From an uncultured Planctomycetia bacterium (GTDB lineage Bacteria; Omnitrophota; Gorgyraeia; Duberdicusellales; 4484-171): 32,000 bases of DNA. The stretch covers positions 90,001 to 122,000 of the forward strand of contig CAZHYN010000002.1 of assembly GCA_964536865.1 (NCBI GenBank), written 5' to 3'. This document shows positions 954-13,012 of the stretch, piece by piece; position 1 is the stretch's first letter, and every line of letters begins with the position of its first letter. Both the position numbers and the translations under genes were made by a program. Below the pieces are notes generated by a model, which saw nothing but the letters and a program-made list of their open reading frames with translations, made no database searches and was not told the origin of the DNA.

Positions 954-1775
954 TTATCTTTCTAAGTATGCTATTATCTTCTCTATTATTTCATCTGTAA
1001 CTTTAGAAGCAGCTAAATCTTTATTAAAATATACAAATGGTTTGCCTGAATCAGAAAGCTTAACAATTTCAGGCTCAACCGGTATTCTCCCTAAGAAAGG
1101 AACATTCAACTTTCTCGCTGAAGCTTCTGCCCCTCCCCTACCAAACAAATCTATCTCTTTTCCACAATAAGGACAAATGAAACCACTCATATTCTCTATT
1201 ATCCCAATTACAGGAACGTTTAACTCTTTAGCAAACAATACGCTCTTGCGGGAATCTAAAGTAGCTACATCCTGAGGAGTAGTAACAACTACTGCTCCAT
1301 TCAGGTTTGGTATAAGCTGACACACGCTTAAAGGTTCGTCTCCCGTACCTGGAGGAGAATCTATTACTAAATAATCAAGTCTTCCCCAATTTACATCAGA
1401 TAAGAATTGCTTAATTACGCCCATCTTAAGAGGGCCCCTCCATATAACAGGCTTCTCCTGGTCTTTGCCGACAAAAGCAAGGCTAATTGCCTTAAGATTA
1501 GGAAGCACTTTTATAGGCTCAATACCCTTATCTGAACCTGTAACCCTTGCTCCCTCTACTCCCAGCATTTTAGCAATATTAGGGCCATGAATATCCACAT
1601 CTAATATACCAATTTGCTTACCCCTAAGAGCTAAACTGTAGGCTAAATTTACAGCTATGGTAGTCTTTCCTACTCCACCTTTCCCACTTATAACAATAAT
1701 CTTATAGTTTATGCCGCACATTTTCTCCTTAAGACGTTCGTCTTGGGCTATCTTCTCTTCATTTATATTCTGCAT
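954..1775 (-). CDS. mrp: Mrp/NBP35/ApbC-family Fe-S cluster carrier ATPase
   Basis: 273 aa. Deviant Walker A SGKGGVGKTT. ENMSGFICPYCG carries the CxxC cluster-bridging motif typical of Mrp/NBP35. Confidence 0.85.
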   Translation of the reverse strand: MQNINEEKIAQDERLKEKMCGINYKIIVISGKGGVGKTTIAVNLAYSLALRGKQIGILDVDIHGPNIAKMLGVEGARVTGSDKGIEPIKVLPNLKAISLAFVGKDQEKPVIWRGPLKMGVIKQFLSDVNWGRLDYLVIDSPPGTGDEPLSVCQLIPNLNGAVVVTTPQDVATLDSRKSVLFAKELNVPVIGIIENMSGFICPYCGKEIDLFGRGGAEASARKLNVPFLGRIPVEPEIVKLSDSGKPFVYFNKDLAASKVTDEIIEKIIAYLER

Positions 1776-1799: not shown

Positions 1800-2660
1800 T
1801 TATGTAATCTCTTCCTCTAATCTATACCAGATTTTAGTAACCTCTCTCTTAGCTTCTGTATCCTGGTATTCTATAATTGTTTTTCCTTCTACCATAGCCT
1901 TTACTACAGACTCGTCAAATTTTATTTTGCCAATTATTGGAATATTATTAATCTGGCAGTAATTTTCTATTCTTTCAGTAACTTCAGTATTTAAATTAAA
2001 TTTATTTATTATCAGTTTAACAGAAACTCCAAAATGCTTAGCTACCTTAATAACTCTATCTGCATCATGCAAGCCTGATAAAGTAGGCTCAACCACCACT
2101 ATTGCATAATCTAAGCCTGATAAAGAAGCAATTACCGGACATCCTATCCCTGGTGAACCATCTATAATTATCAAACTACAATTTTCTTTCTCGGCTATTT
2201 GCTTTGCCTTTTCCCTGACCAAGCTAACGAGTTTGCCTGAGTTTTCTTCAGCTACTCCCAATCTGGCATGGATTAATTTACCAAATCTTGTATTAGATAT
2301 AAACCACTCTCCACAAATCTTTTCCTCCATTCTAATAGCCCCAGCAGGACAAACGTAGCTACAAAAACAGCAACCTTCACAGGAAATAGGGTCAACCACA
2401 AAATCCTCAGTTATAGCAGAAAAACGGCATACAGAGAGGCATTTTCCACAGCGTTGGCAAAACTTCTTATCAATCTCTGCGACTTTACCACTTTTAAACT
2501 TATGTCTTTCTATAATTTCAGGTTTAAGCAAAAGATGTAAATCTGCTGCGTCTACATCACAATCAGCAAAAACAGCATCCTTAGCCAAAGAAGCAAAACC
2601 AGCAGTAATCACAGTCTTACCTGTCCCGCCTTTTCCACTAATAATTCCAATCTGCTTCAT
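1800..2660 (-). CDS. MinD-superfamily P-loop ATPase with inserted 2x[4Fe-4S] ferredoxin domain
   Basis: 286 aa. Walker A SGKGGTGKTV. Two cluster motifs, CQRCGKCLSVC and CEGCCFCSYVCP, sit between the Walker A and the rest of the ATPase fold. 4-nt overlap with the upstream paralog. Confidence 0.85.
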   Translation of the reverse strand: MKQIGIISGKGGTGKTVITAGFASLAKDAVFADCDVDAADLHLLLKPEIIERHKFKSGKVAEIDKKFCQRCGKCLSVCRFSAITEDFVVDPISCEGCCFCSYVCPAGAIRMEEKICGEWFISNTRFGKLIHARLGVAEENSGKLVSLVREKAKQIAEKENCSLIIIDGSPGIGCPVIASLSGLDYAIVVVEPTLSGLHDADRVIKVAKHFGVSVKLIINKFNLNTEVTERIENYCQINNIPIIGKIKFDESVVKAMVEGKTIIEYQDTEAKREVTKIWYRLEEEIT

Positions 2661-3493
2661 TTTACCAATTCTTTAATCTTATAATAGAGAATTTTAAACT
2701 TTTCTCTATATTCAGGAAATCCTTCTATAAGAGGGATGCCTTTTGAATAAGCAACTGCTATTTCTTTTTTAAAAGGAATCTGCATAAGAATAGGGAGCTT
2801 CTTTTGTCTACAAAACTCATCTACTTTGTTATCACCCAATTCAGACCGATTAATAATTACACCAAAAGGAATCTTAAGTTTTCTCAACATCTCCACCGCT
2901 AAAGCCAAATCATTAAGGCCAAAAGGGGTAGGCTCAGTAACTAAGATACAAAAATCACTCCCCTTTACTGCTTCAATAACAGGGCAGGAAGTACCGGGAG
3001 GAACATCAATAATAACATTTTTACCAGAATTTATATGGGCTTTGACCTGGCTAATAAGGGGAGGAGAAATCGCTTCACCAATATTAAGCCTTCCTCCCAC
3101 AAATTCTAAATCGTTTTTTCTACCTATTTCAATAACACCTATTTCCCTCTCAACCTCTTTAATAGCTCCTTGAGGACAAAAGAAGCTGCAAGCTCCACAA
3201 CTATGGCAAAGTTCTTTAAAGACTAAAACATCCTTATTCTTTATTACCGCAATAGCTTTATAAGCACAGACTTCTGCACACTTTCCGCAGAAATTGCACT
3301 TCTCCTTATCTATCTGAGGAACCAGGACAAAAGCTTTTACTTTCTCTGTTATCTGAGGCTTTATAAATATATGAGAGTTAGGCTCCTCTACATCACAATC
3401 TAAAAGCTGGGCAGAAGGTAGAGAAAGAGCTAAATTTACAGCAATAGTAGTCTTTCCTGTTCCACCTTTACCTGAAGCAACTGAAATAACCAT
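2657..3493 (-). CDS. MinD-superfamily P-loop ATPase with inserted 2x[4Fe-4S] ferredoxin domain (paralog)
   Basis: 278 aa. Walker A SGKGGTGKTT. Cluster motifs CNFCGKCAEVC and CHSCGACSFFCP. No obvious Shine-Dalgarno sequence upstream of the ATG at 3493. Confidence 0.85.
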   Translation of the reverse strand: MVISVASGKGGTGKTTIAVNLALSLPSAQLLDCDVEEPNSHIFIKPQITEKVKAFVLVPQIDKEKCNFCGKCAEVCAYKAIAVIKNKDVLVFKELCHSCGACSFFCPQGAIKEVEREIGVIEIGRKNDLEFVGGRLNIGEAISPPLISQVKAHINSGKNVIIDVPPGTSCPVIEAVKGSDFCILVTEPTPFGLNDLALAVEMLRKLKIPFGVIINRSELGDNKVDEFCRQKKLPILMQIPFKKEIAVAYSKGIPLIEGFPEYREKFKILYYKIKELVK

Positions 3494-3592
3494 AGTTTAT
3501 ATAATTTGATGATAAGCCATCATTATCTGCTAAAACTTATAAGATATCCCCAAAGAGGTGGGTCTTCTGGAGGATAAAACCTCTTCTATCTA

Positions 3593-3805
3593 TTACCCAC
3601 GAACCATCCTGGTTCCACACTTAGGACAATTCAAGCTATAACAAGGAACACCTACCTGATGAGGCACTCTCATCCCACAACTAGGACAAACACAATTTCC
3701 TCCTGGACCTGCACCGGGACGATTTCCACCCATTCTACCTCTACCTCTACCACCACCGCTGCCTCTACCTCCTCCAATTGGGCCTCTTCCATCTCCAAAA
3801 GGCAT
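3593..3805 (-). CDS. Small Gly/Arg-rich protein with C-terminal Cys-rich zinc-ribbon
   Basis: 70 aa. N-terminus MPFGDGRGPIGGGRGSGGGRGRGRMGG resembles a DUF5320-type head. C-terminus CVCPSCG...CPKCG. RBS AAAGGAGGTAAAAG lies upstream of the ATG. Confidence 0.6.
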   Translation of the reverse strand: MPFGDGRGPIGGGRGSGGGRGRGRMGGNRPGAGPGGNCVCPSCGMRVPHQVGVPCYSLNCPKCGTRMVRG

Positions 3806-3819
3806 CTTTTACCTCCTTT

Positions 3820-4137
3820 TTAGGCTCTACGAGAATCATTGGAAAGTTTATCTATTCGAGCTAAAACAGAAAAAAGGGTTTCTCTTAACTTCCCAAGTTC
3901 ATCTTTAATTTCTTTTACTTCTCTATCTTTATTTGCTTTTTCAGAAGAAACCATCCTTATTGCCTGAAATGGACAAAATCTTGTGCATACTCCGCAACCT
4001 ACACATTTATCCTCATCAATCCAGGGCCTCCCTCTCACCACTCTTATAGCACCTTGGGGACAACTCGAAATACACTGAAGACAACCCCTGCATATACTTA
4101 AATTAACTACAGCTTTTTTAGATTCTCTAATGCTCAC
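3820..4137 (-). CDS. 2x[4Fe-4S] ferredoxin with C-terminal amphipathic helix
   Basis: 105 aa. Motifs CRGCLQCISSCP and CVGCGVCTRFCP. C-terminal heptad-like segment EVKEIKDELGKLRETLFSVLARIDKL. 11-nt overlap with the upstream gene. Confidence 0.8.
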   Translation of the reverse strand: MSIRESKKAVVNLSICRGCLQCISSCPQGAIRVVRGRPWIDEDKCVGCGVCTRFCPFQAIRMVSSEKANKDREVKEIKDELGKLRETLFSVLARIDKLSNDSRRA

Positions 4138-4453
4138 ACTTATCTGCGCTTTCTTTAAGAACCCCTTTTATAAAATCGTCTATTACCTTATTGATTTCTC
4201 CCTCAGCAAAAATAACCTGGATATTTTTTTCTCTGAATAACTCCTGAGCTCTTGGACCCATACCTCCGCAGATTATCACATTTACCTCCATCTTTGAAAG
4301 ATATTCAGGCAAAAAACCTGGAGTATGACCAGGATTAGAAATAGTCTTTCTTTGCTTTACGCTTTGGCCCTCAGCATCAACAATCTCATACTCAAGACAT
4401 CTTCCAAAATGAGAACTTACTAAATCTCCCTCTTTAGCTATGGCTATCCTCAT
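4127..4453 (-). CDS. NifX/NifB-C-terminal-like (dinitrogenase FeMo-cofactor-binding fold) protein
   Basis: 108 aa. MRIAIAKEGDLVSSHFGRC...VIICGGMGPRAQELF matches the usual pattern of this small-domain family. 4-nt overlap with the upstream gene. Confidence 0.8.
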   Translation of the reverse strand: MRIAIAKEGDLVSSHFGRCLEYEIVDAEGQSVKQRKTISNPGHTPGFLPEYLSKMEVNVIICGGMGPRAQELFREKNIQVIFAEGEINKVIDDFIKGVLKESADKCEH

Positions 4454-5079
4454 TCTTCTGCTCCTTTCTCTAATTCCTGAATTCTTTTGTTTATTAGGCT
4501 CATCTGTTGTTTTAAAAAATCTAACTGCTGTTTTAAAAATTGAAGCTCCTGCTCTTTAGAAACTTGAGGTTGATTAACCTGAGGATAAAATCCTGGTTGA
4601 AAAAACCTTCCTCTTCCCATACCCATACCTCTTCCCATCCCAAAGCCAGGCATAAACCCTGGAGTTGAATAAGGTATATTTTGTTGAGGATTATTAGCTA
4701 ATGCAGAAGGTCCCATCATTCCAAAGTGGCCGAGAACATTAGGGTTAGGAGTGGGGTTGAGCTGGTTTTTTTTAAATTTATCTATGGCCTCTCTTACAGT
4801 TAAACCAGCTAAACCGGTAATAACCTGTATACCTGAAGCCTGAAATACTCCAAAAGAATTAGGTCCCACATTACCAGTCAATACTGCATTTACCCCTTTA
4901 TTGGCTATAAACTGGGCACTGGATATTCCTGCTCCTGAAGGAGAACTAATATTAGGATTAGAGAGACTTTCAAAACTATCCTTTTCTGTATCATAAATTA
5001 TAAAATAAGCACATCTTCCAAAACGAGGATCAACCAGAGAATCTAAATTTCCCCCCTGAGAAGTCACACATATCTTCAT
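4450..5079 (-). CDS. NifX-like domain fused to a low-complexity linker and DUF5320-like coiled-coil tail
   Basis: 209 aa. The N-terminal ~110 aa (MKICVTSQGG...DPRFGRC...GAGISSAQFIANKGVNAVLTGNVGPNSF) are NifX-like. Then comes GFMPGFGMGRGMGMGRGRFFQPGFYP, followed by KEQELQFLKQQLDFLKQQMSLINKRIQELEKG. Confidence 0.75.
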   Translation of the reverse strand: MKICVTSQGGNLDSLVDPRFGRCAYFIIYDTEKDSFESLSNPNISSPSGAGISSAQFIANKGVNAVLTGNVGPNSFGVFQASGIQVITGLAGLTVREAIDKFKKNQLNPTPNPNVLGHFGMMGPSALANNPQQNIPYSTPGFMPGFGMGRGMGMGRGRFFQPGFYPQVNQPQVSKEQELQFLKQQLDFLKQQMSLINKRIQELEKGAEE

Positions 5080-5145
5080 AAAACACCCCTCCTTCTAAAA
5101 ATTGGAAATCCTAAATTCCAATAATTTGGAACAAAGTTATTAAAA

Positions 5146-5466
5146 TTAAGATTCTAACTCCTGGACTCTTTTCTCAATCTGCTCAAGTTGGGCCTTCAAC
5201 GCCTCTGCTTGCTGTTTTAATAGCTGTAACTCCTGTTCTTTAGTAAGTTGAGATACTCCGTAAGGGTCAAAAGGCAAAAATTGGCCTCTTTGAGCCTGGG
5301 GCATATTCTGCCAAGCCCAATTCGCCTGCCAGGTAGGCCAACTCCCGGTCATTAGATACTGAGCCCCTGGAGGCAAAGTCCCCCAACCCGGAGAAAAACC
5401 AAACCTCATCCAGCCAGGTAAACCGGTAAGATAATACATATACCTGTTGCCTCTTCCTCCAACCAT
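5146..5466 (-). CDS. DUF5320-like small protein (W/G/P-rich head plus coiled-coil tail)
   Basis: 106 aa. The head is rich in W, G, P and Q. The tail TKEQELQLLKQQAEALKAQLEQIEKRVQELES is paralogous to the tails at 4450-5079 and 5527-5754. RBS GGGAGGTG lies upstream. Confidence 0.65.
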   Translation of the reverse strand: MVGGRGNRYMYYLTGLPGWMRFGFSPGWGTLPPGAQYLMTGSWPTWQANWAWQNMPQAQRGQFLPFDPYGVSQLTKEQELQLLKQQAEALKAQLEQIEKRVQELES

Positions 5467-5526
5467 ACTAACACCTCCCTCTCTTAGTTTGCAGCTCAGA
5501 ATCAGTAGCCTTGATTTATAAATTAA

Positions 5527-5754
5527 TTATTGGCCTCTCTCTAATTCCTGAATTCGGGCATCTATATCCTTAAGTTGAGCTTCTAAGTTTTGTCTTAATT
5601 GCCTCAAATAACTTAATTCATCCTGCCCAAAAAAGAAAGGAGAAACCCCCCCGAGATAAGGTAATCCATATCCGTAAGAAGCAGGCCAATAAGGATAAAA
5701 ATAAGGCATCATAAACCAACCTGCTGGACCCATCCCAAAAGGCATAACCATCAC
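5527..5754 (-). CDS. DUF5320-like small protein (Met/aromatic/Pro-rich head plus coiled-coil tail)
   Basis: The maximal ORF is 75 aa from a GTG at 5754. The G-rich SD (GGGGGGTG) is best spaced for the ATG at 5745, which gives MPFGMGPAGWFMMPYFYPYW... (72 aa). The tail is ELSYLRQLRQNLEAQLKDIDARIQELERGQ. Confidence 0.65.
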   Translation of the reverse strand: MMVMPFGMGPAGWFMMPYFYPYWPASYGYGLPYLGGVSPFFFGQDELSYLRQLRQNLEAQLKDIDARIQELERGQ

Positions 5755-5783
5755 CCCCCTTTTAAAAATTAAAAGCTGAAAAA

Positions 5784-6017
5784 TTACCTCGTCTGCCCCA
5801 AAGATTGATTACTTCCGTAACCAAAAGGTGTATAACTAAAAGGATTTATTGGCCCATATATACCTGTCCACCACCATCTGGGAAGCCAGGGAAACCACCT
5901 GCAGAAAGGATAAGGATTGCCTCTTCCCCAGCCAAAGTAAGGAAAGTAAGGATAGCCGTAGCCAAAATAACCCCACTTCCAAAAACCAGGACCCCAAAAA
6001 TTTCTTCCTCTAGGCAT
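5784..6017 (-). CDS. Small extremely aromatic/Gly/Pro-rich basic protein (no coiled-coil tail)
   Basis: 77 aa with 9 W, 9 F, 9 Y, 14 G and 11 P, and no Asp or Glu. N-terminus is MPRGRNFWGPGFW. A strong RBS (AGAGGAGGTGA) lies ~8 nt upstream of the ATG. A Fur-type operator lies 35 nt upstream. Confidence 0.55.
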   Translation of the reverse strand: MPRGRNFWGPGFWKWGYFGYGYPYFPYFGWGRGNPYPFCRWFPWLPRWWWTGIYGPINPFSYTPFGYGSNQSLGQTR

Positions 6018-6051
6018 TTTTAATCACCTCCTCTTTTAAATATCATTACCA

Positions 6052-6068
6052 TTGAAAATCATTTTCAA
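6052..6068. promoter_or_regulatory. Fur-family operator (8-1-8 palindrome TTGAAAATcATTTTCAA)
   Basis: Perfect inverted repeat between the fur stop codon (6087) and the start of the 77-aa gene (6017). The inner 7-1-7 TGAAAATnATTTTCA differs by one base per half-site from the Bacillus-type Fur box TGATAATnATTATCA. It may overlap a -35 TTGAAA. Confidence 0.6.
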
Positions 6069-6086
6069 CAATATATTAAAAAAAAA

Positions 6087-6536
6087 TTAGCTACAATTTG
6101 AACATAAACCGTAAAAATGAATTTGATGAGTCTCTATTTTAAAATTATGTTTTTTAGATAATCTTTCTTCTAAACCCTTTATTAATTTTTGTTCATCCTC
6201 TACAAAATCTTTATAATCAATTATCTTCCCACACTTTCTGCAAATTAAATGGTGATGATGTTCTATACCTGGTCCCTGGCTTAATTCAAATCTGGCCCTT
6301 CCGTCTCCAAACTCATATTTCCTTACCAGGCCCATATTAAAAAGAAGTTCTAAAGTTCTGTAAACTGTAGTAAGCCCTATCCCCGGATACCGCTTATGAA
6401 CTTTCAGGAAAATATCCTCAGCACTAAGGTGCTTTTTTTCTTTAGTCAAAACATCCAAGATAACCTGCCTGGGAAAAGTCCACCTAAAACCACAACCTCT
6501 AAATCTTGCTTCTAACCATCTCGGGCCAAAAGGCAT
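6087..6536 (-). CDS. fur: Fur-family metalloregulator (Fur/PerR/Zur subtype not resolved)
   Basis: 149 aa. Winged-helix N-domain (TFPRQVILDVL...HLSAEDI...TVYRTLELL). His cluster HHHHLICRKCGK. Two CxxC pairs (CRKC, CSNC) form a structural Zn site. RBS AAGGAAGGAG lies upstream. Confidence 0.9.
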   Translation of the reverse strand: MPFGPRWLEARFRGCGFRWTFPRQVILDVLTKEKKHLSAEDIFLKVHKRYPGIGLTTVYRTLELLFNMGLVRKYEFGDGRARFELSQGPGIEHHHHLICRKCGKIIDYKDFVEDEQKLIKGLEERLSKKHNFKIETHQIHFYGLCSNCS

Positions 6537-6551
6537 AAAACTCCTTCCTTA

Positions 6552-6568
6552 TTGAAAATGATTTTCAA
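6552..6568. promoter_or_regulatory. Fur-family operator (second copy, TTGAAAATgATTTTCAA)
   Basis: Same 8-1-8 palindrome as 6052-6068, read from the opposite strand. It lies between the predicted -10 and the RBS of fur, a position that suggests autoregulation. An extra half-site-like ATTGAAA sits immediately upstream on the coding strand. Confidence 0.6.
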
Positions 6569-6578
6569 TTTCAATAAA

Positions 6579-6607
6579 ATAATACCATAATAAGCTTCTC
6601 CTGTCAA
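6579..6607 (-). promoter_or_regulatory. Sigma70-type promoter of the fur-led operon
   Basis: The minus strand reads TTGACA (6607-6602), a 17-nt spacer ending in TGg (extended -10), then TATTAT (6584-6579). The operator starts 10 nt downstream of the -10. Confidence 0.55.
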
Positions 6608-6873
6608 GAGTAAAAGACCTGGAGTTTCCCCAAAATTTTTAAGCCAGTAAAGAGAAGAGGAAGAGCTGTTTTTCGGTACTTTGCAATTTTCTTTCCTTCC
6701 ACGGCCACTCCATCTTATATTAAATAGAATTCTAAATATCCCCAAGGCTAAGCAATAGTGTTTGAAGGGTGATATCTGAAAGAATCTTTTTGCCTTTTCA
6801 TAAATCTTCTTAAGAAGAATATTTAATCCCAAATTTTTCATTACCTGCCTGACGGCAGGCCTGCCCGCTGATG

Positions 6874-6910
6874 TTTACCCCGCCCTTTCCTTGAAAGGGC
6901 GGGGTTCGGG
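6874..6910 (-). terminator. GC-rich hairpin 3 nt after the operon stop codon; short copy of a repeated palindromic element
   Basis: The minus strand reads CCCGAACC-CCGCCCTTT-caagg-AAAGGGCGG-GGTAAA, an 11-bp G/C-rich stem with a 5-nt loop. There is no U-tract. A second hairpin (CCTGCC tgac GGCAGG) lies at 6845-6860. It is homologous to the element at 21559-21627. Confidence 0.4.
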
Positions 6911-6912
6911 GG

Positions 6913-7956
6913 TTACTCTAAGTGATCCCCCTTTAGAATCTTTCTAACTAAGTCAAAAACCTCCTCAGGTTTTATTTCTCTAAGACATAAAAATCCCTTA
7001 TTACAGTTATGAGCTAAGCACTTTTTGCACCCTACATCTTTATGTAAGTAGAAAGACTTCTCTCCTAACGGCCTCCATCTTTGAGGAGAAAGACCTTGGT
7101 TGTTTCTTCCAAATATGGAGATAACAGGAGTATTTAAGCTAGCGGCAATGTGCACAGGACCACTATCATTGGAAATAAAAATATTGGCTCGCTTCAAAAG
7201 AGAAGCTAAAGAAGAAATATCTAATCTTCCTCTTAAGTCGATTAAATCAGGATGTTCCTCGATAAGAAGCTGGCCATAAACTATCTCTGATTTAGAAGTA
7301 ATTACTGCAATTTTAGGATAAAATTCTTCTTTTAGTAATCTTATCAAAGATGAAAAGTGTCTTTGAGGCCATCTCTTGGATGGGCAAGAAGCAGAAGGAT
7401 GAATTACAAAGAGTAAATCATCTTCTTCTACTCCTCTACTTTTAAGTAACTGCTCTATATAGCGTTCCTTTTCTTCTTTTATGGGAAAATATAGAGACTT
7501 ATCAATTATCTTAATATCTATCTCTCTGAGAATATCTAAAGTATACTCCAACTCATGCTTCTGGCCTTTATCTTTAGTATGGGGAATTCTTTTAGTAAGA
7601 AGAAAACCACATTTTTTATCCCAGCCAACTCTAAAGGGAATTCCTGCAAAGTAGGTAATTAGGTGTACTCTATTTGTAGGATGCAAAATTATTGCCCAAT
7701 CAAATTTTTTTCTTCTCAACCATAAAGAAAATTTTGCAGAAGAAAACCAGCCTTTATGTCTTCCGTATTTATCATAAATGATTACCTCATCAAGATAAGG
7801 ATTTCCCTCTAATATATCCTTAGTGTAAGGCCGGCACATAAAAGCAATCCAACTATTAGGAAAGGCTATTCTTAAGTTCTTAATCACTGGCGTAGAAAGG
7901 ACTACATCTCCAATTCTGTCTGTACGAACAATCAATATTTTTTTAACTCCTCTCAT
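6913..7956 (-). CDS. Glycosyltransferase family 9 (LPS heptosyltransferase-like)
   Basis: 347 aa. N-terminus ILIVRTDRIGDVVLSTPVIKNL and the C-terminal block FISNDSGPVHIAASLNTPVISIFG are typical GT9 motifs. Confidence 0.8.
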   Translation of the reverse strand: MRGVKKILIVRTDRIGDVVLSTPVIKNLRIAFPNSWIAFMCRPYTKDILEGNPYLDEVIIYDKYGRHKGWFSSAKFSLWLRRKKFDWAIILHPTNRVHLITYFAGIPFRVGWDKKCGFLLTKRIPHTKDKGQKHELEYTLDILREIDIKIIDKSLYFPIKEEKERYIEQLLKSRGVEEDDLLFVIHPSASCPSKRWPQRHFSSLIRLLKEEFYPKIAVITSKSEIVYGQLLIEEHPDLIDLRGRLDISSLASLLKRANIFISNDSGPVHIAASLNTPVISIFGRNNQGLSPQRWRPLGEKSFYLHKDVGCKKCLAHNCNKGFLCLREIKPEEVFDLVRKILKGDHLE

Positions 7957-8872
7957 AGGATAATAACTTTCTTACTGCCTCTATTACTCTATGAGGGGAA
8001 ATCTTCATGCAATCGGAATTATAGGGACAAATTGATCTTCCACAGGGAGAACACAATAGATTTTCATTACGTAGAACTATAGATTTAGTAGACCAAGGAC
8101 CGTAACGAAGAGAAGATGTGGGGCCAAAGATAGCAACGATAGGTAGATCAATATAACTGGCTAAATGAAGAAGAGCGGAATCCACTCCTAAAAAAAGTAT
8201 AGCATAGTTTTCTAAAAGAAAGAATACTTCACTCATTGTAGTTTTACCTACCAAATCTATAACTCCTCTTATTTTAAGAATGTCTTTATAAAACTCTCTA
8301 TCTTCATTTCTCCCTACTATCACTGAAGGATAATCTTTAACTAAATCCATAATTACTTCCTTAAGGTATGGGTAACGTTTAACAGCAGAGCGAGAGGAAC
8401 AGCCCACGAATATCGAAGGAGGTATATTTTCTCGATGCCATTTTTCCTCCTCTTGGGGGGTTAATAAGAAACTACTCTTTTTAATAACTGTATTTTGGGA
8501 GGTAATTTTTCTCACTAAACTGAGATACTCATCTTTCATATGCATATCTTTGCAGGACTTCCTCCAAAACGGTGTTCTCCTCCTAATCCCCAAAAGAAAA
8601 GGCAGGAGAGAGTTTTTAAAATCAATTATTAAATCATACTTGCCCTTTAGATCATAACAGAATCTCATCTTCTCTCTTATTCTCCACCTTTTATCAAACA
8701 CAGCAACATCATCGATAAAATTATTTCTCAGTAGAAACTCCTTAGTCTTAGGAGAAACTATGGCAGTAATCTTAGCTTGAGGATAGGAGGATTTAACTTT
8801 ATCTAACACAGGGAGAGCTAAGATTGTATCTCCTAAATTAGTAGGAAAATTGAAAATTATTCTTTCAGGCAT
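7943..8872 (-). CDS. Glycosyltransferase family 9 (heptosyltransferase-like), divergent
   Basis: 309 aa. NLGDTILALPVLDKV and GVDSALLHLASYIDLPIVAIFGPT are GT9-type motifs. 14-nt overlap with the downstream gene. Confidence 0.7.
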   Translation of the reverse strand: MPERIIFNFPTNLGDTILALPVLDKVKSSYPQAKITAIVSPKTKEFLLRNNFIDDVAVFDKRWRIREKMRFCYDLKGKYDLIIDFKNSLLPFLLGIRRRTPFWRKSCKDMHMKDEYLSLVRKITSQNTVIKKSSFLLTPQEEEKWHRENIPPSIFVGCSSRSAVKRYPYLKEVIMDLVKDYPSVIVGRNEDREFYKDILKIRGVIDLVGKTTMSEVFFLLENYAILFLGVDSALLHLASYIDLPIVAIFGPTSSLRYGPWSTKSIVLRNENLLCSPCGRSICPYNSDCMKISPHRVIEAVRKLLSYERS

Positions 8873-9864
8873 TGGAGAATCTCTTTTGCCTCTCGGAAAA
8901 CCTCCTCAGCAGATACATTCTTCATGCAAATATTATTCCTACAATTCAATTTAAAACAGGGGACTTTGCATTCCTTATTCTTATAAATTAATCTAATCAA
9001 TCCTTTACCTCGTGGTCCACTGATAGAAGGATGAGTAGGACCGAATATAGCTATGAGAGGAGTCCCCACACTTGCAGCTAAGTGCATTATTCCAGTATCT
9101 GCAGAAATAAACAAATTAACTCTCTTTAAAACTGCTCCTAACTCTCTTAAGCTTGTTCTACCTACCAAAAGATAAGGCTTGTTCTTCATTAGCTTCTTTA
9201 TCTGGAAAGCTAAATCTAAATCATCTCTTGTGCCAGTAATTATAACCGAAGCATCTAACTCCTCTATTAACTTATCCCCTAACTGAGCGAAATACTCTTT
9301 TGGCCACATCTTAAGGGCCCAGTTAGCCTTAGGATGGAGAACTACTTTTAATCTACTATTTAAAATAGACGAAGGAAGAATTGAACCTACTTGTTCGATT
9401 TCTTGAGGCAAGAGAAAAAATTCTGGTTCTTTCTTACTTACTTTGAGACCTATACTCTCTATCAAATTTAAATAGTAATCCATCTTATGAGTACCTTTGG
9501 GGGGAAGGGAAATCTTCCTATTTATAAAAGTAATTTTTTTTGATTCGTATCCGTAAATATCTTTGATGTGTGCTAACTTACACATCAACGATTTAGTAAA
9601 GGAAGGTTTAAGTAGAAAGGCAGTATCAAACTCTTTCTTTGATATCCTCTTGGTAATTTTTAAATTAGAGAGCAAATCTCGGTGAGAAGAAAAAGTTATA
9701 ATCTCGTCCACAAAAGGACTGTGGATAAAAATCTGCTCCACTCTTTTATGAATTAAAATACCTATCCAACAATGAGGTTTATTTTCTTTTAAACTACGTA
9801 AGAGAGGGGTAGCCATAAGAGAATCTCCTATCCAGTTAGGTAGAAATACCAAAATCTTTTTCAT
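8857..9864 (-). CDS. Glycosyltransferase family 9 (heptosyltransferase II/WaaF-like)
   Basis: 335 aa. ILVFLPNWIGDSLMATPLLRSL and FISADTGIMHLAASVGTPLIAIFGPT. The specific acceptor cannot be assigned from sequence alone. Confidence 0.75.
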   Translation of the reverse strand: MKKILVFLPNWIGDSLMATPLLRSLKENKPHCWIGILIHKRVEQIFIHSPFVDEIITFSSHRDLLSNLKITKRISKKEFDTAFLLKPSFTKSLMCKLAHIKDIYGYESKKITFINRKISLPPKGTHKMDYYLNLIESIGLKVSKKEPEFFLLPQEIEQVGSILPSSILNSRLKVVLHPKANWALKMWPKEYFAQLGDKLIEELDASVIITGTRDDLDLAFQIKKLMKNKPYLLVGRTSLRELGAVLKRVNLFISADTGIMHLAASVGTPLIAIFGPTHPSISGPRGKGLIRLIYKNKECKVPCFKLNCRNNICMKNVSAEEVFREAKEILQCLKE

Positions 9865-9866
9865 AC

Positions 9867-10964
9867 TTAATTACTGTGGATTAAAACCTCCTCATATACC
9901 TGATAAGTAGACTCCCCCATCCTCTCTAAACTAAATCTCTCCTCCACCCTCTTTTTAGCGTTAGCTACCATCCGCCTCCTTAAATCGTTATCCTCTAAAA
10001 GAAGTTCGATAGCCTCTAAGATTTCTTTAGAATCACTCCTCTTTAAAACGACACCTGTTACTCTATTTTCTACTATCTCCTTTAAAGCGCCAGAATTTGT
10101 TACTATTACAGGGATACCCACATACTGAGCTTCAACAACTGAAAATCCAAAAGGCTCTCCCTCACTTAAGGAGAGGAAAATATCTAAATTTCTCAATACT
10201 ACTAAAGACGACAGTTTCTTTAAAAAGACAACTCTATTATCTACACCTAAATTCTTACTCATTTCCTTTAATTTTGCCTCTTCTTTCCCCTCTCCTAAAA
10301 TTAAAGTAACTGCCTTAGGATACTTCTTCAGAATAAGAGGCATAGTTTGGATAAGCAAAGAAATATTCTTTTCTGGAGCCAAGCGAGATATCATCCCTAT
10401 AACAGGATAACCATTAAAGCCTACAGGTAAGACCTCTTCCTTAATAGAATTATCTATTTGAGAAAAAGAATTGATATCAATACCGTTATAAATTACTCGT
10501 ACTTTCTTAGGATCAATCTTAAGATTTCTGATTAAGTGGTCTTTTACATAATTACTCACTGCTATGGTTCTTAACCCTGCGAAGGGAAATAGTCTTCTAA
10601 ATAGATGGGGTCGATAACATCCATGGAAAGTGGATACATAAGGAATTTTTCTAGTTGCCCATAAACGATGAGCTAAAGATTGAGTTACTCTAGTGTTAGC
10701 ATGAATAATGTCTACTTTCCTCTTTTTAAGAAATCTACTTAATATGTGAAACGATTTAGCTATCTTAGGAGAAAGAATAGACTTTGTAGCTATAGGAAGG
10801 TTTAAGACTACCGTATTACTTACTCCTACCAACTTTTTCTCCCATTCTCCTCCACTGGTTGCTACAATAACAAAATTCTTCCTTGCTAAAAATTTCGCTA
10901 AATTTATTACATAGCGGGGGATACCTCCCACATTAAGATGAGTAGTAAGAAGGAGAATCCTCAT
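9867..10964 (-). CDS. Glycosyltransferase family 4 (GT-B, retaining)
   Basis: 365 aa. N-terminus MRILLLTTHLNVGGIPRY. EX7E-type motif EGEPFGFSVVEAQYVGIPVIVT. Confidence 0.8.
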   Translation of the reverse strand: MRILLLTTHLNVGGIPRYVINLAKFLARKNFVIVATSGGEWEKKLVGVSNTVVLNLPIATKSILSPKIAKSFHILSRFLKKRKVDIIHANTRVTQSLAHRLWATRKIPYVSTFHGCYRPHLFRRLFPFAGLRTIAVSNYVKDHLIRNLKIDPKKVRVIYNGIDINSFSQIDNSIKEEVLPVGFNGYPVIGMISRLAPEKNISLLIQTMPLILKKYPKAVTLILGEGKEEAKLKEMSKNLGVDNRVVFLKKLSSLVVLRNLDIFLSLSEGEPFGFSVVEAQYVGIPVIVTNSGALKEIVENRVTGVVLKRSDSKEILEAIELLLEDNDLRRRMVANAKKRVEERFSLERMGESTYQVYEEVLIHSN

Positions 10965-13012
10965 CTTTCTATAATCTCTTTGATCTTCCTAAAAACTTCT
11001 TGGGGGCTAATACTTTTCATACAAGTATTTAACCGGCACCTTGGCTTATAACAGAAGGAGCAAGGAAGTTGTTTATATAATACATAAAGATTTCTGCTCT
11101 CTACTATATGACGTTTAGGATCGGTAGGACCAAATAGAGCGACAGTCTCTACTCCTAATGCTGCAGAAATATGCAGAGTAGCAGTATCTTGACATACAAA
11201 CACTTTAAGGATACTTAAGAGTACTATTAGTTCTTTTAGATTGGTCTTGCCACAGAGATTGATAACTCCATCTTTAAAGTTTTTTCTTATATGATTTGCT
11301 GCTTCCCTGCTATGAGAATCTCCTACTAAAACTATCTTATAAGAAGGGAATTCTTTCCTTATAAATTCTATAAGTTTAATAATATTCACTATAGGCCAGT
11401 TCTTTGTCTTCCATCTCACCGAAGCAGAAACACTTATCCCAATCAAATTTTTCTCTCCGGATAACCCTAACTTCTCTATAGAGGTAAGGGATGGCTTCTT
11501 CATAATCAATTTTCTTTCCTTTATCTCGATCCCCAATAACCGTAAGATTCTATTTTGTGACTGAAGAGGGTTGATTCTTTCTTTGGGAAACTTTACCGAG
11601 GATGTAAGAAGAAAACCAAGCTTACGGGAGAAACCGAAAGACTTCTGAGGAAAACTTAAAAAAGCAATAAGATGTGTAGCTAGATTATTCTGCAAATCTA
11701 TTATATAATCAAAACTCTCTCTCCGTAAACTATTAGAAATTTTAATAATCCTCTTCATCTTCTTATAATCTCTATCTATCCCTATTACCTTATCCACAAA
11801 GGGAAACTCATAAAACAGAGAAGCATATTTTTTTAAAGTCAAAACTACCAGTTTACTTTTAGGAAAACTCTCCTTTATCGCCTTAAGTGAAGGAATAGCT
11901 AACACTACATCACCCAAGGAAGAAACTTTTATAACTAAAATTCTTTTAAACTCTATAGCTTCTCGGTAAGTCTGAAGAATTTTACTATAACAGTTTTGGA
12001 GGGTATAAAGCGTTTCTACTTTCTTGCGCCCATTATAAGCCAGCTTCCTTGCTAAAGATGGATTATCTATCAGAGTTAAAATAGCTTCCTTTATCTGGTT
12101 GGAATCACCAGGTAAAACTAAAATGCCGTTTTTTTTATCTTCTACAATTTCCTCCAGAGCACCTACCTTGGTAGCAATTACTGGAACTCCACTAGCAAAT
12201 GCTTCTACCACCACCCTCCCAAAAGACTCCTTAGCAACGGAAGGAACTACCATAAGAGAGGCTTTTTCTAATATTCTCTCTACGTTAGACTGATACCCCA
12301 AAAATTCCACATGATAATCTAAAGATAAGCGTCTCACTAAATTCTTTAAATACTCAAAGTAATTCCATTTAGACTTCTCCGCCTCTCCTACGATAAGAAG
12401 ATTCAGATAAGGTTTCACTCTTATAACCTTATGAAATGCCTGAATAAGATACTCAAAGCCCTTAGAGGGAGATATTCTTCCTATACTTACTATTATATTG
12501 GAAGCTAACCTCTGAGAAGGATCTTTAAAAGTAAATCGAGATAGATCTACCCAACGACTGATTATTCTAATTTTTTCTTCACTGACACCGAAATTTTTCA
12601 TCATATGACGAGCAATCACCTTGGAAGGACATATAACAAATTTACCCCACCCCATTACCTTACTAAATGTATGTTTAGAATAGGCTCCATGAGCAGTAGT
12701 GATAAAGGGAATATCTCTCCCTCGAGTAGCAAAAAAAGTAACCCATGCAGGAACACGAGAGCGAGCATGAACTATCTCTGCCTTCTCTTGCTGAATAATT
12801 TTTCTCACTTTTCTTATCAGCCGAAGAGTAAGAGGGGATTTTTTATGTATGGGAAGATTATAGCAAGTTACTCCTTCTTCTTTTAATTTTGCGATTAGCC
12901 TTCCTCCCCCAGAAATAACTACCATCTCCTCCTTAAAATACTTAGCTAAATCTAAAACTCCTCGTTCCACTCCTCCTAAATCCATTTTGGGAAGAACTTG
13001 AATAACCTTCAT
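10961..13012 (-). CDS. Bifunctional GT4-GT9 fusion glycosyltransferase
   Basis: 683 aa. Residues 1 to ~350 are GT4 (GGVERGVLDL..., ESFGRVVVEAFASGVPVIAT). Residues ~357 to 683 are GT9 (ILVIKVSSLGDVVLAIPSLKAI..., VCQDTATLHISAALGVETVALFGPT). Confidence 0.8.
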   Translation of the reverse strand: MKVIQVLPKMDLGGVERGVLDLAKYFKEEMVVISGGGRLIAKLKEEGVTCYNLPIHKKSPLTLRLIRKVRKIIQQEKAEIVHARSRVPAWVTFFATRGRDIPFITTAHGAYSKHTFSKVMGWGKFVICPSKVIARHMMKNFGVSEEKIRIISRWVDLSRFTFKDPSQRLASNIIVSIGRISPSKGFEYLIQAFHKVIRVKPYLNLLIVGEAEKSKWNYFEYLKNLVRRLSLDYHVEFLGYQSNVERILEKASLMVVPSVAKESFGRVVVEAFASGVPVIATKVGALEEIVEDKKNGILVLPGDSNQIKEAILTLIDNPSLARKLAYNGRKKVETLYTLQNCYSKILQTYREAIEFKRILVIKVSSLGDVVLAIPSLKAIKESFPKSKLVVLTLKKYASLFYEFPFVDKVIGIDRDYKKMKRIIKISNSLRRESFDYIIDLQNNLATHLIAFLSFPQKSFGFSRKLGFLLTSSVKFPKERINPLQSQNRILRLLGIEIKERKLIMKKPSLTSIEKLGLSGEKNLIGISVSASVRWKTKNWPIVNIIKLIEFIRKEFPSYKIVLVGDSHSREAANHIRKNFKDGVINLCGKTNLKELIVLLSILKVFVCQDTATLHISAALGVETVALFGPTDPKRHIVESRNLYVLYKQLPCSFCYKPRCRLNTCMKSISPQEVFRKIKEIIER

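Follow-up and report, generated by a model that had tools for sequence, protein, structure and literature searches.

Small DUF5320-type proteins encoded with NifX-like proteins and a Fur-family regulator in a relative of Candidatus Omnitrophota

The window analyzed here, a stretch of 32,000 nucleotides, comes from a bacterium that is a relative of Candidatus Omnitrophota. It carries a cluster that opens with fur, is accompanied by two Fur-box-like palindromes and includes four kinds of small-protein genes, termed types A to D (Table 1). All of the open reading frames named in a preliminary description of this DNA were found, on the minus strand and at the coordinates given there. As had been claimed, a good SD sequence was present upstream of each small-protein gene, and also of fur and the 209-aa gene, and the overlapping downstream genes for the 108-aa NifX-like protein and the 105-aa ferredoxin had weak or absent SD sequences. 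The preliminary description had named fur and drawn no link to operator sites. Two perfect Fur-box-like palindromes were found in the window, compared with 0.08 expected, and the same sequence was detected upstream of fur in three related Omnitrophota loci (L002, L003 and L007); it was also present in loci L011 and L019. In L002, fur and type A share 4 nt, the stop of one overlapping the start of the other. This context suggests putative Fur-family control of the cluster at predicted operator sites.

Table 1. Genes and sites of the cluster, with positions in the window
Feature	Position	Strand	Basis
Sigma-70-like promoter TTGACA-17-TATTAT upstream of fur	6579..6607	-	consensus match only, 11/12, with TG
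Fur-box-like perfect palindrome TGAAAAT-G-ATTTTCA	6553..6567	.	upstream of fur, just downstream of promoter-like site
Fur-family regulator, first gene of the cluster	6087..6536	-	PF01475 121.9 bits
Fur-box-like palindrome TGAAAAT-C-ATTTTCA	6053..6067	.	fur / type A intergenic region
Type A, 77-aa aromatic cationic protein, no coiled-coil tail	5784..6017	-	sequence, composition, 85 homologues
Type B, 72-aa, DUF5320-type heptad tail	5527..5745	-	start choice, orthologues, DUF5320 14.6 bits (sub-threshold)
Type C, 106-aa DUF5320 protein, 30-residue C-terminal helix	5146..5466	-	240 homologues, invariant columns
209-aa NifX-like (ORP/IssA-type) protein with DUF5320 tail	4450..5079	-	PF02579 90 bits, PF17253 42.7 bits
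108-aa stand-alone NifX-like domain	4127..4453	-	PF02579 68.7 bits
105-aa 2x[4Fe-4S] ferredoxin, four-heptad C-terminal helix	3820..4137	-	Fer4 families
Type D, 70-aa, RG-rich head and Cys4 ribbon	3593..3805	-	sequence, at least 999 homologues
Two MinD/CbiA-type P-loop ATPases, each with an inserted 2x[4Fe-4S] motif (Orp3/Orp4-like)	1800..3493	-	profile search
Mrp/NBP35-type Fe-S carrier	954..1775	-	NF041136 MrpORP 360.5 bits (cut-off 450; profile positions 3-250 of 365)

The 209-aa protein comprises, in order, a NifX-like domain, a Pro/Asn linker, a cationic GFMPGFGMGRGMGMGRGRFF segment (residues 106-170, pI 10.9) and a DUF5320 tail, and its best solved relative was 2WFB 'ORP' (E 1.7e-23). 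The ferredoxin helix keeps a heptad register (8/10 a/d positions) and had no sequence similarity to the DUF5320 tail in a pairwise comparison. On sequence, the cluster belongs to the ORP (orange protein) and IssA type. Like Desulfovibrio ORP operons, it has genes for a pair of MinD-like ATPases bearing 2x[4Fe-4S] motifs, for a NifX-domain protein resembling ORP, for a carrier of the Mrp/NBP35 type and for a small protein rich in Cys. However, the MrpORP-like carrier lacks the fused Di-Nase domain, which here is a separate gene (the 108-aa protein matched the C-terminal Di-Nase domain of MrpORP, positions 265-364, at 94.8 bits), and three extra small DUF5320-type genes and the helix-tailed ferredoxin are present. 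Where the Desulfovibrio operons have sigma-54/OrpR, this cluster has fur, Fur-box-like sites and a sigma-70-like promoter (the promoter search covered the sigma-70 type). The ORP complex contains Orp3, 4, 5, 8 and 9 (PMC6345978), of which Orp5 (DVU2105 / Dde_3197) was reported to bind [2Fe-2S] (PMID 27240719); in the literature the complex is described as 'putatively involved in cell division'.

The 77-aa type A protein was an outlier in composition. Recomputation gave W9, F9, Y9, G14, P11, R6, K1 and C1 with no D/E (pI 10.0), reproducing exactly the 35% aromatic content and the 68% contributed by W, F, Y, G and P that had been described; the long open reading frames of the window averaged 8.5% aromatic residues (maximum, 15.5%). 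Homologues (n=85) were found in bacteria and archaea, and the family comprised 170 clusters (50% identity) among 1.84 billion proteins. In the alignment, Arg/Gly/aromatic-rich (G/F/W/Y/R) spacers that vary in length and sequence lead into an invariant core, GRGNPYPFCRWFPWLPRWWWTGIYGP, of the pattern CRxFPWLPRxWW...GxYGP, with C39, R40, F42, P43, P46, R47, W49, W50 and P59 as invariant columns. The single Cys39 was retained even in divergent members, e.g., CQRFPWLPRWWW and CVRFPWMTRWWW, and Asp and Glu were absent from 51 of 54 tail-less type A proteins. Because about a third of type A relatives bear a DUF5320 coiled-coil tail, the 77-aa protein appears to belong, as a form without the tail, to an undescribed branch of DUF5320 with an aromatic core; the literature and database searches made found no prior description of the aromatic core CRWFPWLPRWWWTGIYGP.

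The small open reading frames, above all that of 77 aa, might have been spurious or the wrong frame of a conserved antisense gene, a condition named in the preliminary description. Antisense frames of 72 and 54 aa do overlap 5784-6017, and the 77-aa protein had no match in Pfam or NCBIfam profile searches. Set against this are protein-level conservation over two domains of life with invariant residues, a strong SD sequence, a gene order around type A that was conserved among the loci compared, and a predominance of third-codon-position substitutions in the type A frame (6/5/33 by position in an example comparison, with 26 synonymous versus 10 non-synonymous changes). Conservation and third-position changes together rule out the antisense reading, and the chance that the frame is spurious is negligible. 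The 77-aa open reading frame is a real gene.

The type B frame also opens at GTG 5754 (75 aa), and the earlier preference for ATG 5745 (72 aa) was borne out by an SD sequence (GGGGGGTGA) ending 5-6 nt upstream of that ATG, by a gene caller that predicts 72 aa on the identical contig and by orthologues, which start MPFGMGPAGW. Type B orthologues are present in Omnitrophota, Aminicenantes and Clostridia loci. Its head (MPFGMGPAGW..YPYW), followed by a heptad tail, by itself resembles the heads of archaeal core-plus-tail proteins (E about 1e-3). Type C has the invariant motif TGLPGWMRFGFSPGW (alignment pattern TGLPGWMRFGxSPGW), and many of its homologues match PF17253. Neither type B nor type C has a conserved Cys. 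Type D joins an RG-rich head (MPFGDGRGP...GNRPGAGPGG) to a Cys ribbon (CxCPxCG...PHQxGVPC...CPxCG), as had been described, with four of its six Cys in two CPxCG pairs; the heads of its homologues matched DUF5320 profile positions 1-40 at 27-28 bits.

The heptad tails of the 106-aa (TKEQELQLLKQQAEALKAQLEQIEKRVQELES), 209-aa (SKEQELQFLKQQLDFLKQQMSLINKRIQELEK) and 75-aa (ELSYLRQLRQNLEAQLKDIDARIQELE) proteins read as claimed previously. Pairwise BLASTP aligned the 106- and 209-aa tails with 64% identity over 33 aa (E 4e-12), the 72- and 106-aa proteins at E 3e-9 and the 72-aa protein and the 209-aa tail at E 5e-8. Each tail follows a 3-4 heptad register, with L/I/V/M at 7-8 of 9-11 a/d positions, in line with the proposed coiled coil.

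DUF5320 is an uncharacterised family of bacteria and archaea that is named only in passing in the literature found. At the Pfam cut-off of 27 bits (PF17253), the earlier assignment to this family held for the 209-aa protein and for close homologues of the 106-aa protein, for tail-bearing 77-aa homologues (27-36 bits) and for 70-aa homologues (head only); the window's own 77-, 75-, 106- (23.7 bits) and 70-aa proteins fell below the threshold or had no match in the Pfam search. NCBI labels several homologues, including some of type C, 'DUF5320 domain-containing protein', and the head / middle / heptad-tail layout is that of DUF5320, from which the 77-aa form differs in having no tail. The claim of one related family stood insofar as the proteins are built around DUF5320, but profile comparison found that the 77-aa and 106-aa families share the tail and not the cores. 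The recurring modules are a cationic MPxG/RG-rich head, the TGLPGWMRFGxSPGW motif, an aromatic core (NPYPFCRWFPWLPRWWWTGIYGP) with one invariant Cys, and a four-heptad helix, KEQExxxLxxQxxxLxxQLxxIxKRxxELE. In other genomes, they are joined in single chains (GLPGW, core and tail in P0231 and P0262; a further combination in P0219) or attached to another domain, whether NifX-like, ferredoxin or Cys4-ribbon (ferredoxin with type A core in P0319 and P0322; NifX with type D in L015, L017 and L048). The pattern is beyond chance, because conservation of these protein families extends to both bacteria and archaea. Collectively, the small genes are real and encode modular members or relatives of DUF5320.

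AlphaFold gave no confident fold for the two small proteins modeled (pLDDT 51 and 59; 50.6 in the AF2 model of type A), and in type C only the helix at 76-105 was predicted with pLDDT 70-81. The earlier view of these proteins as low-complexity and disordered agrees with these models but not with their invariant, position-specific motifs, by which they read as motif-bearing modules rather than merely low-complexity sequence. A related reading, which we consider distinctly unlikely, is that composition-driven disordered FG/RG/Met modules assemble into a condensate or gel, held together by the coiled coil and by multivalent contacts between aromatic residues and Arg. Low AF2 confidence outside the tail helix, the variable spacers, the (GMGRG)n repeats of NifX-like partners and the 20-300 nm particles made by IssA-thioferrate (PMC5524996) would all suit such a material. 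It is less apt because such modules would not need invariant position-specific motifs, whose presence across bacteria and archaea compositional selection alone does not predict; it also overlaps the metal-sulfide explanation given below rather than excluding it.

Linkage of the small-protein genes to genes of NifX-like proteins (orange-protein / IssA-type) is tight and specific. In 57/80 loci, the aromatic-core gene had a NifX-like gene no more than 1 kb away, in 30 of the 34 loci with full flanks type A had one within 4 kb, and NifX-like gene density was 2.91 per 10 kb within 3 kb of type A versus 0.03 beyond 5 kb. Extensions of at least 35 aa were present in 56 of 122 NifX-like neighbours of type A, most of them composed of (GMGRG)n, a linker and a DUF5320-type tail, as in the 209-aa protein. 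Fusions of a CDF metal transporter, a NifX-like domain and a W/R/G tail also adjoin type A genes.

The link to MinD-type Fe-S ATPases is looser (within 4 kb of type A in 22 of the 34 full-flank loci). Such proximity raises the possibility, in our view an unlikely one, that the small proteins are McdB-like partners or adaptors of MinD/ParA-class (Orp3/Orp4-like) ATPases. McdB-type partners combine a basic disordered N-terminus, a coiled coil and an invariant Trp. The proteins described here have a comparable layout (a comparison of layout only), a cationic head preceding a heptad helix, with conserved Trp and genes beside ParA/MinD-class ATPases, and they pair invariant short motifs with no monomer fold, as in linear interaction motifs. 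In that case, the head would act on the ATPase, stimulating or recruiting it, the coiled coil would serve for both oligomerisation and cargo binding, and the system would position or partition an Fe-S particle or the division site; septum positioning and polar MrpORP localisation are described in the ORP literature (PMC3897727, PMC6345978). However, unlike in McdB systems, the strongest linkage is to NifX-like proteins (30 versus 22 of 34 loci), and L002 retains types A, B, C and D with no MinD-Fer4 ATPase in the cluster. Moreover, the heptad tail is fused to NifX-like proteins and was never seen on ATPases among the fusions examined, and the ATPases concerned, with their ferredoxin inserts, are equally like metallocentre-maturation and positioning ATPases.

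Two further readings concern the aromatic core itself. Tritrpticin (VRRFPWWWPFLRR) and indolicidin are Trp/Arg-rich membrane-active peptides. With a similar composition, the acid-free Trp/Arg/Pro-rich core (pI 10) might act as a membrane-interface anchor for an Fe-S complex, at either the cytoplasmic membrane or the cell pole; W/R/G tails occur on the membrane CDF transporter and NifX-like fusion, and MrpORP is polar in D. vulgaris (PMC6345978). This is very unlikely, given that membrane-interface binding rarely needs an invariant 20-residue sequence or an invariant Cys, that no transmembrane or amphipathic helix was predicted for the 77-aa protein and that the linkage is to soluble NifX-like proteins. 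Alternatively, the core protein could be a small Fe-S or metal-binding subunit in which Cys39 of two to four chains ligates a cluster that bridges them, as happens at the dimer interfaces of Mrp/NBP35 or NifH. The persistence of Cys39 in divergent members and the neighbouring Fe-S carriers fit this idea, and a parallel coiled coil in tail-bearing homologues would juxtapose the Cys residues. We hold it to be highly improbable, since each chain offers a single Cys and neither His nor another ligand, the tail-less 77-aa form lacks an evident oligomerisation element, and types B and C have no conserved Cys.

Because DUF5320 relatives of anaerobic bacteria and archaea adjoin NifX-like genes in an operon that, in the present organism, also holds fur and Fur-box-like sites, the small proteins probably serve as accessory components of a machine that handles or stores iron-sulfur, a context that fits the iron-related role proposed earlier. 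Compared with the condensate, soft-metal and chaperone roles suggested in the preliminary description, the context speaks for something more specific, the handling of metal sulfides by NifX-like (ORP/IssA-type) proteins under putative Fur-family control. IssA (P. furiosus PF2025) has one Cys per monomer and shapes thioferrate-like particles (PMC8219758); its tail, Pro-rich and then cationic/aromatic/Gly with conserved W, G and R, is proposed to wrap anionic thioferrate (PMC5524996). By composition as described in PMC5524996, not by alignment, the proteins studied here are similar, in that a NifX-like domain (IPR003731) goes together with a Pro-rich, then cationic/aromatic/Gly-rich unstructured segment with the same conserved residue types, a high pI and very few Cys. 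Iron-dependent expression of IssA in P. furiosus has its counterpart here in fur and the Fur-box-like sites. Unlike in IssA, most of the aromatic/cationic segments are encoded by small genes of their own, and the fused tail has a coiled coil at its end. Placement of the 209-aa protein in the IssA clade was rejected by the criteria of the IssA paper (pI 8.91, below 9; Gly 2.5% over the last 40 residues).

By analogy with IssA, our tentative preference (probability about 0.42) is that the small proteins are coiled-coil-docked cationic/aromatic subunits that hold anionic metal-sulfide species as the IssA tail does, but in trans. The shared heptad helix would dock them onto the NifX-(GMGRG)n-helix protein, forming a hetero-oligomer, with the helix-tailed ferredoxin perhaps a further docking partner. 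Acid-free Arg/aromatic/Gly (and Met) segments with no fold of their own would become ordered as they surround an inorganic, anionic partner that the NifX-like domain holds, through charge and aromatic packing as proposed for the covalent IssA C-terminal tail. Candidate partners are thioferrate-like (FeS2-)n, as chains or as clusters, and a thiometallate cluster like that of orange protein, which binds an anionic Mo-Cu-S cluster non-covalently (PMC6345978). The invariant Cys may contribute an inter-subunit ligand, and Fe-S loading or unloading would be the task of the ATPases and Mrp.

The modeled lack of an autonomous fold despite invariant motifs, the near-complete absence of Asp and Glu from tail-less type A proteins and, as side evidence, the CDF transporter fusions next to type A genes would support this in-trans reading. 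Against it, electrostatic wrapping requires no precise positioning (PMC5524996), and the strict invariance of CRWFPWLPRWWW and TGLPGWMRFG fits a specific protein-protein contact better than loose wrapping. Also against it, type B (pI 4.7) and the tails are acidic, not cationic, and the tail-less 77-aa protein has no obvious docking element. In the in-trans reading, Fur would couple expression of the cluster to iron supply. A DtxR-type repressor was present in one archaeal type A locus.

Recomputation upheld the composition of the 77-aa protein (type A) as first described, with 9 Trp, 9 Phe, 9 Tyr, 14 Gly, 11 Pro, 6 Arg, 1 Lys, 1 Cys and neither Asp nor Glu. Aromatic residues make up 35% of the protein, the mean among the 34 long ORFs of the window being 8.5% and the maximum 15.5%; W, F, Y, G and P together account for 68%, and the pI is 10.0. 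All of the small ORFs were found on the minus strand as reported, and no other copies of the family were found elsewhere in the window.

Features of the cluster and its upstream region, in minus-strand order (the C-terminal heptad helix is termed the tail)
Feature	Position	Strand	Length	Description
Putative LPS-core-type region	6913-13012	minus		same strand as cluster, upstream of it
GC-rich hairpin	6878-6904	minus		perfect 12-bp stem
ORF	6512-6841	minus	109 aa	probably spurious
Fur-box-like palindrome TGAAAAT-N-ATTTTCA	6553-6567			between promoter-like site and fur
fur	6087-6536	minus		
Fur-box-like palindrome TGAAAAT-N-ATTTTCA	6053-6067			between fur and type A, directly upstream of the 77-aa gene
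Type A	5784-6017	minus	77 aa	aromatic core
Type B	5527-5745	minus	72 aa	head MPFGMGPAGW..YPYW + tail
Type C	5146-5466	minus	106 aa	invariant TGLPGWMRFGxSPGW + tail
Tailed NifX-like	4450-5079	minus	209 aa	NifX-like + GMGRG + tail
NifX-like	4127-4453	minus	108 aa	stand-alone
Ferredoxin	3820-4137	minus	105 aa	with four-heptad helix
Type D	3593-3805	minus	70 aa	head MPxGDGxGP...GNRPGAGPxG + Cys4 ribbon
Two MinD/CbiA ATPases	1800-3493	minus		with ferredoxin inserts
Mrp	954-1775	minus		
FmdB ribbon		minus		
Nudix		minus		

A search with the 77-aa protein returned 85 homologues at E ≤ 0.01, from Omnitrophota, other bacteria, Thermoplasmata, Methanocellales, Hydrothermarchaeota, Alkanophaga and Nitrososphaeria. 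Alignment of 31 of these revealed a G/F/W/Y/R-rich spacer of variable length and sequence, followed by an invariant core, GRGNP(Y/F)PFCRWFPWLPRWWWTGIYGP. Columns C39, R40, F42, P43, P46, R47, W49, W50 and P59 were invariant, and the window protein has each of them, its core reading C-R-x-F-P-W-L-P-R-x-W-W...G-x-Y-G-P with the invariant Cys. Nucleotide differences from orthologues clustered at third codon positions; in the comparison with locus L010 they numbered 6, 5 and 33 by codon position, and of the codon changes 26 were synonymous and 10 non-synonymous. This third-position excess indicates that the 77-aa frame is right and that antisense ORFs are irrelevant, which answers the concern, raised in the preliminary description, that the ORF might be the wrong frame of an antisense gene. 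Homologues, invariant columns and third-position substitutions thus rule out a spurious ORF.

An exhaustive profile search of 1.84 billion proteins yielded 170 type A clusters at 50% identity, and the motif CR[WNF]FPWLPR occurred in 158 of 185,579 species genomes, the best 80 of which were used for all locus counts. These 80 were nearly all metagenome-assembled genomes (MAGs), with a few single-cell genomes, from uncultured lineages, many hydrothermal or subsurface; the lineages are in general regarded as anaerobes. The nearest genome listed among the 80 was a Guaymas Candidatus Omnitrophota MAG (L007, 93% identity). By a simple criterion, the tail was present in 26 of the 80 type A genes, and Asp and Glu were absent from 51 of the 54 tail-less proteins. 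Pfam and NCBIfam models did not match the 77-aa protein, a PDB sequence search with the type A profile gave only chance coiled-coil matches to prefoldin (E about 0.07), and AlphaFold2 with the family alignment produced no confident fold (pLDDT 50.6). A RiPP precursor reading was dropped because the sequences have no leader/core pattern and are conserved in bacteria and archaea; in addition, a radical-SAM gene lay near only one (L006) of the loci whose neighbours were inspected.

All four gene types, A to D, were recurrent and conserved in bacteria and archaea. The three heptad tails, in the 106-, 209- and 75-aa ORFs, read as originally reported, and each has a clean 3-4 heptad register. Pairwise BLASTP showed 64% identity over 33 residues between the 106- and 209-aa tails (E = 4e-12) and aligned the 72-aa with the 106-aa protein (E = 3e-9). 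For the ORF at 5527-5754, the ATG at 5745 proved the better start, as had been proposed, on the basis of SD spacing, a 72-aa gene call on the identical contig and orthologues that begin MPFGMGPAGW. The 106-aa type C protein shares 96% identity with a protein from an Omnitrophota MAG. When the A and C families were compared by hhalign, only the tail aligned (98.6% probability), so the cores are distinct modules. Accordingly, the claim of a paralogous family holds at the level of shared modules and does not extend to the A and C cores. The head of type B alone matched the heads of archaeal core-plus-tail proteins (E about 1e-3), which suggests that type B is a protein of this kind minus its core.

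The label of low complexity was only partly apt. AlphaFold2 with the family alignment predicted only the tail helix of the 106-aa protein and gave no other confident fold, in keeping with the label, whereas the motifs are sequence-invariant. Invariance despite the lack of a confident fold points to folding on a partner, and much of this low-complexity-looking sequence is under strong constraint. These observations bear on a rival explanation in which the small proteins form condensates driven by composition.

Membership of DUF5320 (PF17253; gathering score 27 bits for the whole protein), suggested by the layout in the preliminary description, was borne out in part. The 209-aa protein scored 42.7 bits, above the cut-off; the 106-aa protein fell narrowly below at 23.7, the 75-aa form scored 14.6, and the 77- and 70-aa proteins gave no match. 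The C-terminal heptad helix, of the form KEQE...L..Q...L..QL..I.KR..ELE (profile positions about 70-99), is present in the 72/75-, 106- and 209-aa proteins and absent from the 77- and 70-aa proteins. Since the small proteins of the window are sub-threshold or unmatched in Pfam and NCBIfam, family assignment was drawn from homologues, of which those of type C (P0090, 28.5 bits), tailed type A (P0011, P0044 and P0013; 34.2, 36.2 and 27.2 bits, positions 35-99) and, by its head, type D (P0388, P0412 and P0446; 27.3-28.4 bits, positions 1-40) all passed. The tail-bearing proteins are ordinary members or near-members of an existing Pfam family that has passing mentions in two papers and no functional literature. 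No description of the aromatic-core branch, which current Pfam and NCBIfam models miss, or of this modular picture of the family was found in the searchable literature.

The 209-aa protein matched PF02579 (IPR003731, NifX-like; 90 bits), and the nearest solved relative of this domain was the orange protein 2WFB (E = 1.7e-23). Mrp scored 360.5 bits against the NCBIfam MrpORP model NF041136, below its 450 cut-off, and covered positions 3-250 of 365, while the 108-aa protein matched positions 265-364. The MrpORP equivalog combines Mrp and Di-Nase domains, whereas the window Mrp lacks the latter; judged by model coverage, this is a split MrpORP, with the Di-Nase domain encoded apart as the 108-aa gene. 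The Desulfovibrio ORP complex contains the Orp3/4 ATPases, the orange protein Orp8, the MrpORP Orp9 and the small Orp5 (PMC6345978), and its gene set is that of the window: Orp3/Orp4-like MinD ATPases with two [4Fe-4S] motifs, an ORP-like NifX protein and Mrp. Size, Cys content and cluster position, the only links drawn, suggest that type D may be a homologue of Orp5, a small [2Fe-2S] protein (DVU2105/Dde_3197). The helix of the 2x[4Fe-4S] ferredoxin is C-terminal, with L, I, V or M at 8 of 10 a/d positions, and no sequence similarity between it and the DUF5320 tail was detected; an Omnitrophota orthologue (L002, 9363-9626) also carries such a helix.

The order fur-A-B-C-NifX+tail-Fd-NifX-D-Mrp was preserved in L002, another Omnitrophota genome, with the fur stop overlapping the type A start. 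In archaeal loci, A, C and D were retained with NifX-like proteins and MinD-Fer4 ATPases as neighbours, and ZnuABC, or a DtxR-type repressor and DUF134, lay nearby. Of the best 80 loci from the 158 genomes, 57 had a NifX-like gene no more than 1 kb from type A, at a median gap of 188 bp, and 56 had type C at that range; a MinD-Fer4 gene lay within 3 kb in 38, and type D was found in 24. Of the 34 loci flanked by at least 4 kb on each side, 30 had a NifX-like gene within 4 kb, 26 had type C and 22 the ATPases. The density of NifX-like genes was 2.91 per 10 kb within 3 kb of type A versus 0.03 beyond 5 kb, a difference of about 100-fold. Extensions of at least 35 aa were present at the C terminus of 56 of the 122 neighbouring NifX-like proteins, and in most of these a P/Q linker follows (GMGRG)n repeats and leads into the same heptad tail. 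No earlier description of this quantitative linkage to tailed NifX-like proteins was found in the searchable literature. The small proteins could alternatively be McdB-like adaptors of the neighbouring MinD/ParA-class ATPases; a NifX-centred reading is favoured by linkage that is closer to NifX-like genes than to ATPases, and by one locus with A to D and no MinD-Fer4 genes.

The modules also occurred as fusions. Single chains carried GLPGW, core and tail (P0231, P0262), type C, tail, type A and tail (P0219), or a 2x[4Fe-4S] ferredoxin, GR/GM repeats and core (P0319, P0322), and a NifX-like domain was fused to the type D ribbon in L015, L017 and L048. Fusion of NifX to the aromatic core, which would tie the core to IssA-like proteins, was not found in the best 150 type A representatives. 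In archaea, CDF fusions of 440-450 aa adjoin type A genes (L015, 2717-4039; L017, 6646-7998; L085, 9830-11161) and comprise Cation_efflux (147 bits), ZT_dimer (73 bits) and NifX-like (51 bits) domains and a C-terminal W/R/G tail (RRWGRWRRRGPWWRRIWG; YRGWGRRGWWWRGRGPWWRR), so that a metal transporter is physically joined to an IssA-like module. Directly upstream of the type C gene of L006 lies an acid-free 103-aa W/Y/G/P/R protein (4993-5304; MAWGWFGRGRGGWAGPWPGRGPFSYLPPWQRPGWW...), whose head recurs in P0245, P0317 and P0324, where a core-like motif and two tails are joined to it.

To our knowledge, only two studied systems are relevant, Pyrococcus IssA and the orange protein, and only IssA has so far been tied to the question of iron and sulfide storage, buffering and traffic in strict anaerobes. 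IssA consists of a NifX-like domain and a 70-residue tail, predicted to be unstructured, that is Pro-rich and then cationic (7), aromatic (14) and Gly-containing (15), with W, G and R as conserved residue types; the role proposed for the tail is to wrap anionic thioferrate (FeS2-)n through charge, with stabilising aromatic contacts (PMC5524996). IssA has one Cys, requires both iron and sulfide to be expressed and shapes particles but does not create them (PMC8219758), and its homologues increase in FeS2-grown Methanococcus voltae (PMC8516115). The orange protein binds an anionic Mo-Cu-S cluster non-covalently (PMC6345978). By published composition, the IssA tail has the same chemistry as the small proteins, which, unlike that fused tail, are separate genes here. 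A docking-type helix is common to them and the NifX-like protein. The IssA clade is defined (Vaccaro et al. 2017, Supplementary Fig. 7) by a NifX-like domain (IPR003731), pI ≥ 9, a Cys count below 5 and a Gly content of at least 20% over the last 40 residues. The 209-aa protein has the domain and 2 Cys, and falls outside the clade with a pI of 8.91 and 2.5% Gly in its last 40 residues, a value that is low because the coiled coil follows the Gly/Arg segment; its Gly/Arg/Met segment (residues 106-170) has a pI of 10.9.

Because IssA-tail-like chemistry resides in separate genes and the helix is shared with the NifX-like protein, we propose a hetero-oligomer. The coiled coil would assemble the small proteins with the NifX-like protein. 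The NifX-like domains would hold an anionic metal-sulfide species, around which acid-free Arg/aromatic/Gly (and Met) segments would become ordered; loading or unloading of the cluster would fall to the ATPases and Mrp, with Fur controlling the level. The linkage, modules and fusions of the small proteins are observed, as are the palindromes at the level of sequence; their docking, the ligand and the binding of Fur are inferred. We assign this mechanism as a whole a probability of roughly 40%. Several points count against it: loose electrostatic wrapping would account for motif invariance less well than a specific contact with a protein, the 77-aa form lacks a tail for docking, and the 209-aa protein lies outside the published IssA clade. 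Further rival explanations are that a cluster is bound through bridging by the invariant Cys39 of the core, or that Trp and Arg form a membrane-interface anchor. The finding contributes a conserved set of small partners with sharp motifs and a plausible docking helix, found beside fur and operator-like sites that match it. It makes a testable hypothesis out of a Pfam domain of unknown function, with short invariant sequences and one Cys as targets for mutation, and interest would be high if the small proteins do bind thioferrate. A wider reading, which we consider improbable, is that the aromatic-core and GLPGW proteins are trans-acting mineral-binding peptides, an unrecognised class common to bacteria and archaea, which would cap, template or solubilise thioferrate-like iron-sulfide polymers on NifX-like proteins; tailed NifX, MinD-type Fe-S ATPases and, for some archaea, fusions to CDF transporters would join them in an anoxic-world counterpart of ferritin, whose expression Fur or DtxR would set.

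A sigma-70-like promoter with a strong consensus match, TTGACA-17-TATTAT with TG, lies upstream of fur. The two TGAAAAT-N-ATTTTCA sites, both perfect palindromes, are the only ones in 32 kb (0.08 expected) and differ from the 7-1-7 Fur box TGATAAT-N-ATTATCA by two symmetric mismatches, one per half-site. In L002, L003 and L007, which are related Omnitrophota loci, fur is closely preceded by an identical box, and the box also occurs, counted regardless of position relative to fur, in L011 and L019 (Aminicenantes). No earlier description of the Fur boxes of this cluster was found in the searchable literature. The obvious reading of these sequence features is autoregulated, iron-responsive expression of the cluster through putative Fur sites, which Fur would bind.

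The 109-aa ORF, which gene calling on the identical public contig accepted and for which no Pfam family is recorded, spans the first Fur box as well as the promoter-like site and overlaps the start of fur. The N-terminus of Fur is unusual in two orthologues, reading MPFGPRW in the window and MPHGPRW in L002 (7546-8004), and its resemblance to the MPxG start of the small proteins may be due to chance. The hairpin, CCCCGCCCTTTC-AAG-GAAAGGGCGGGG, lies just past the stop (6913) of the upstream heptosyltransferase-like gene and was missed by the terminator scan because no T run follows it. Farther upstream, the ORFs resemble heptosyltransferases and glycosyltransferases by eye, and this region appears unrelated to the finding. 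In L002, a sigma-54 gene and a sigma-54-dependent response regulator (3171-6943) lie directly upstream of fur, a pair reminiscent of the way in which sigma-54/OrpR controls the orp operons of Desulfovibrio.
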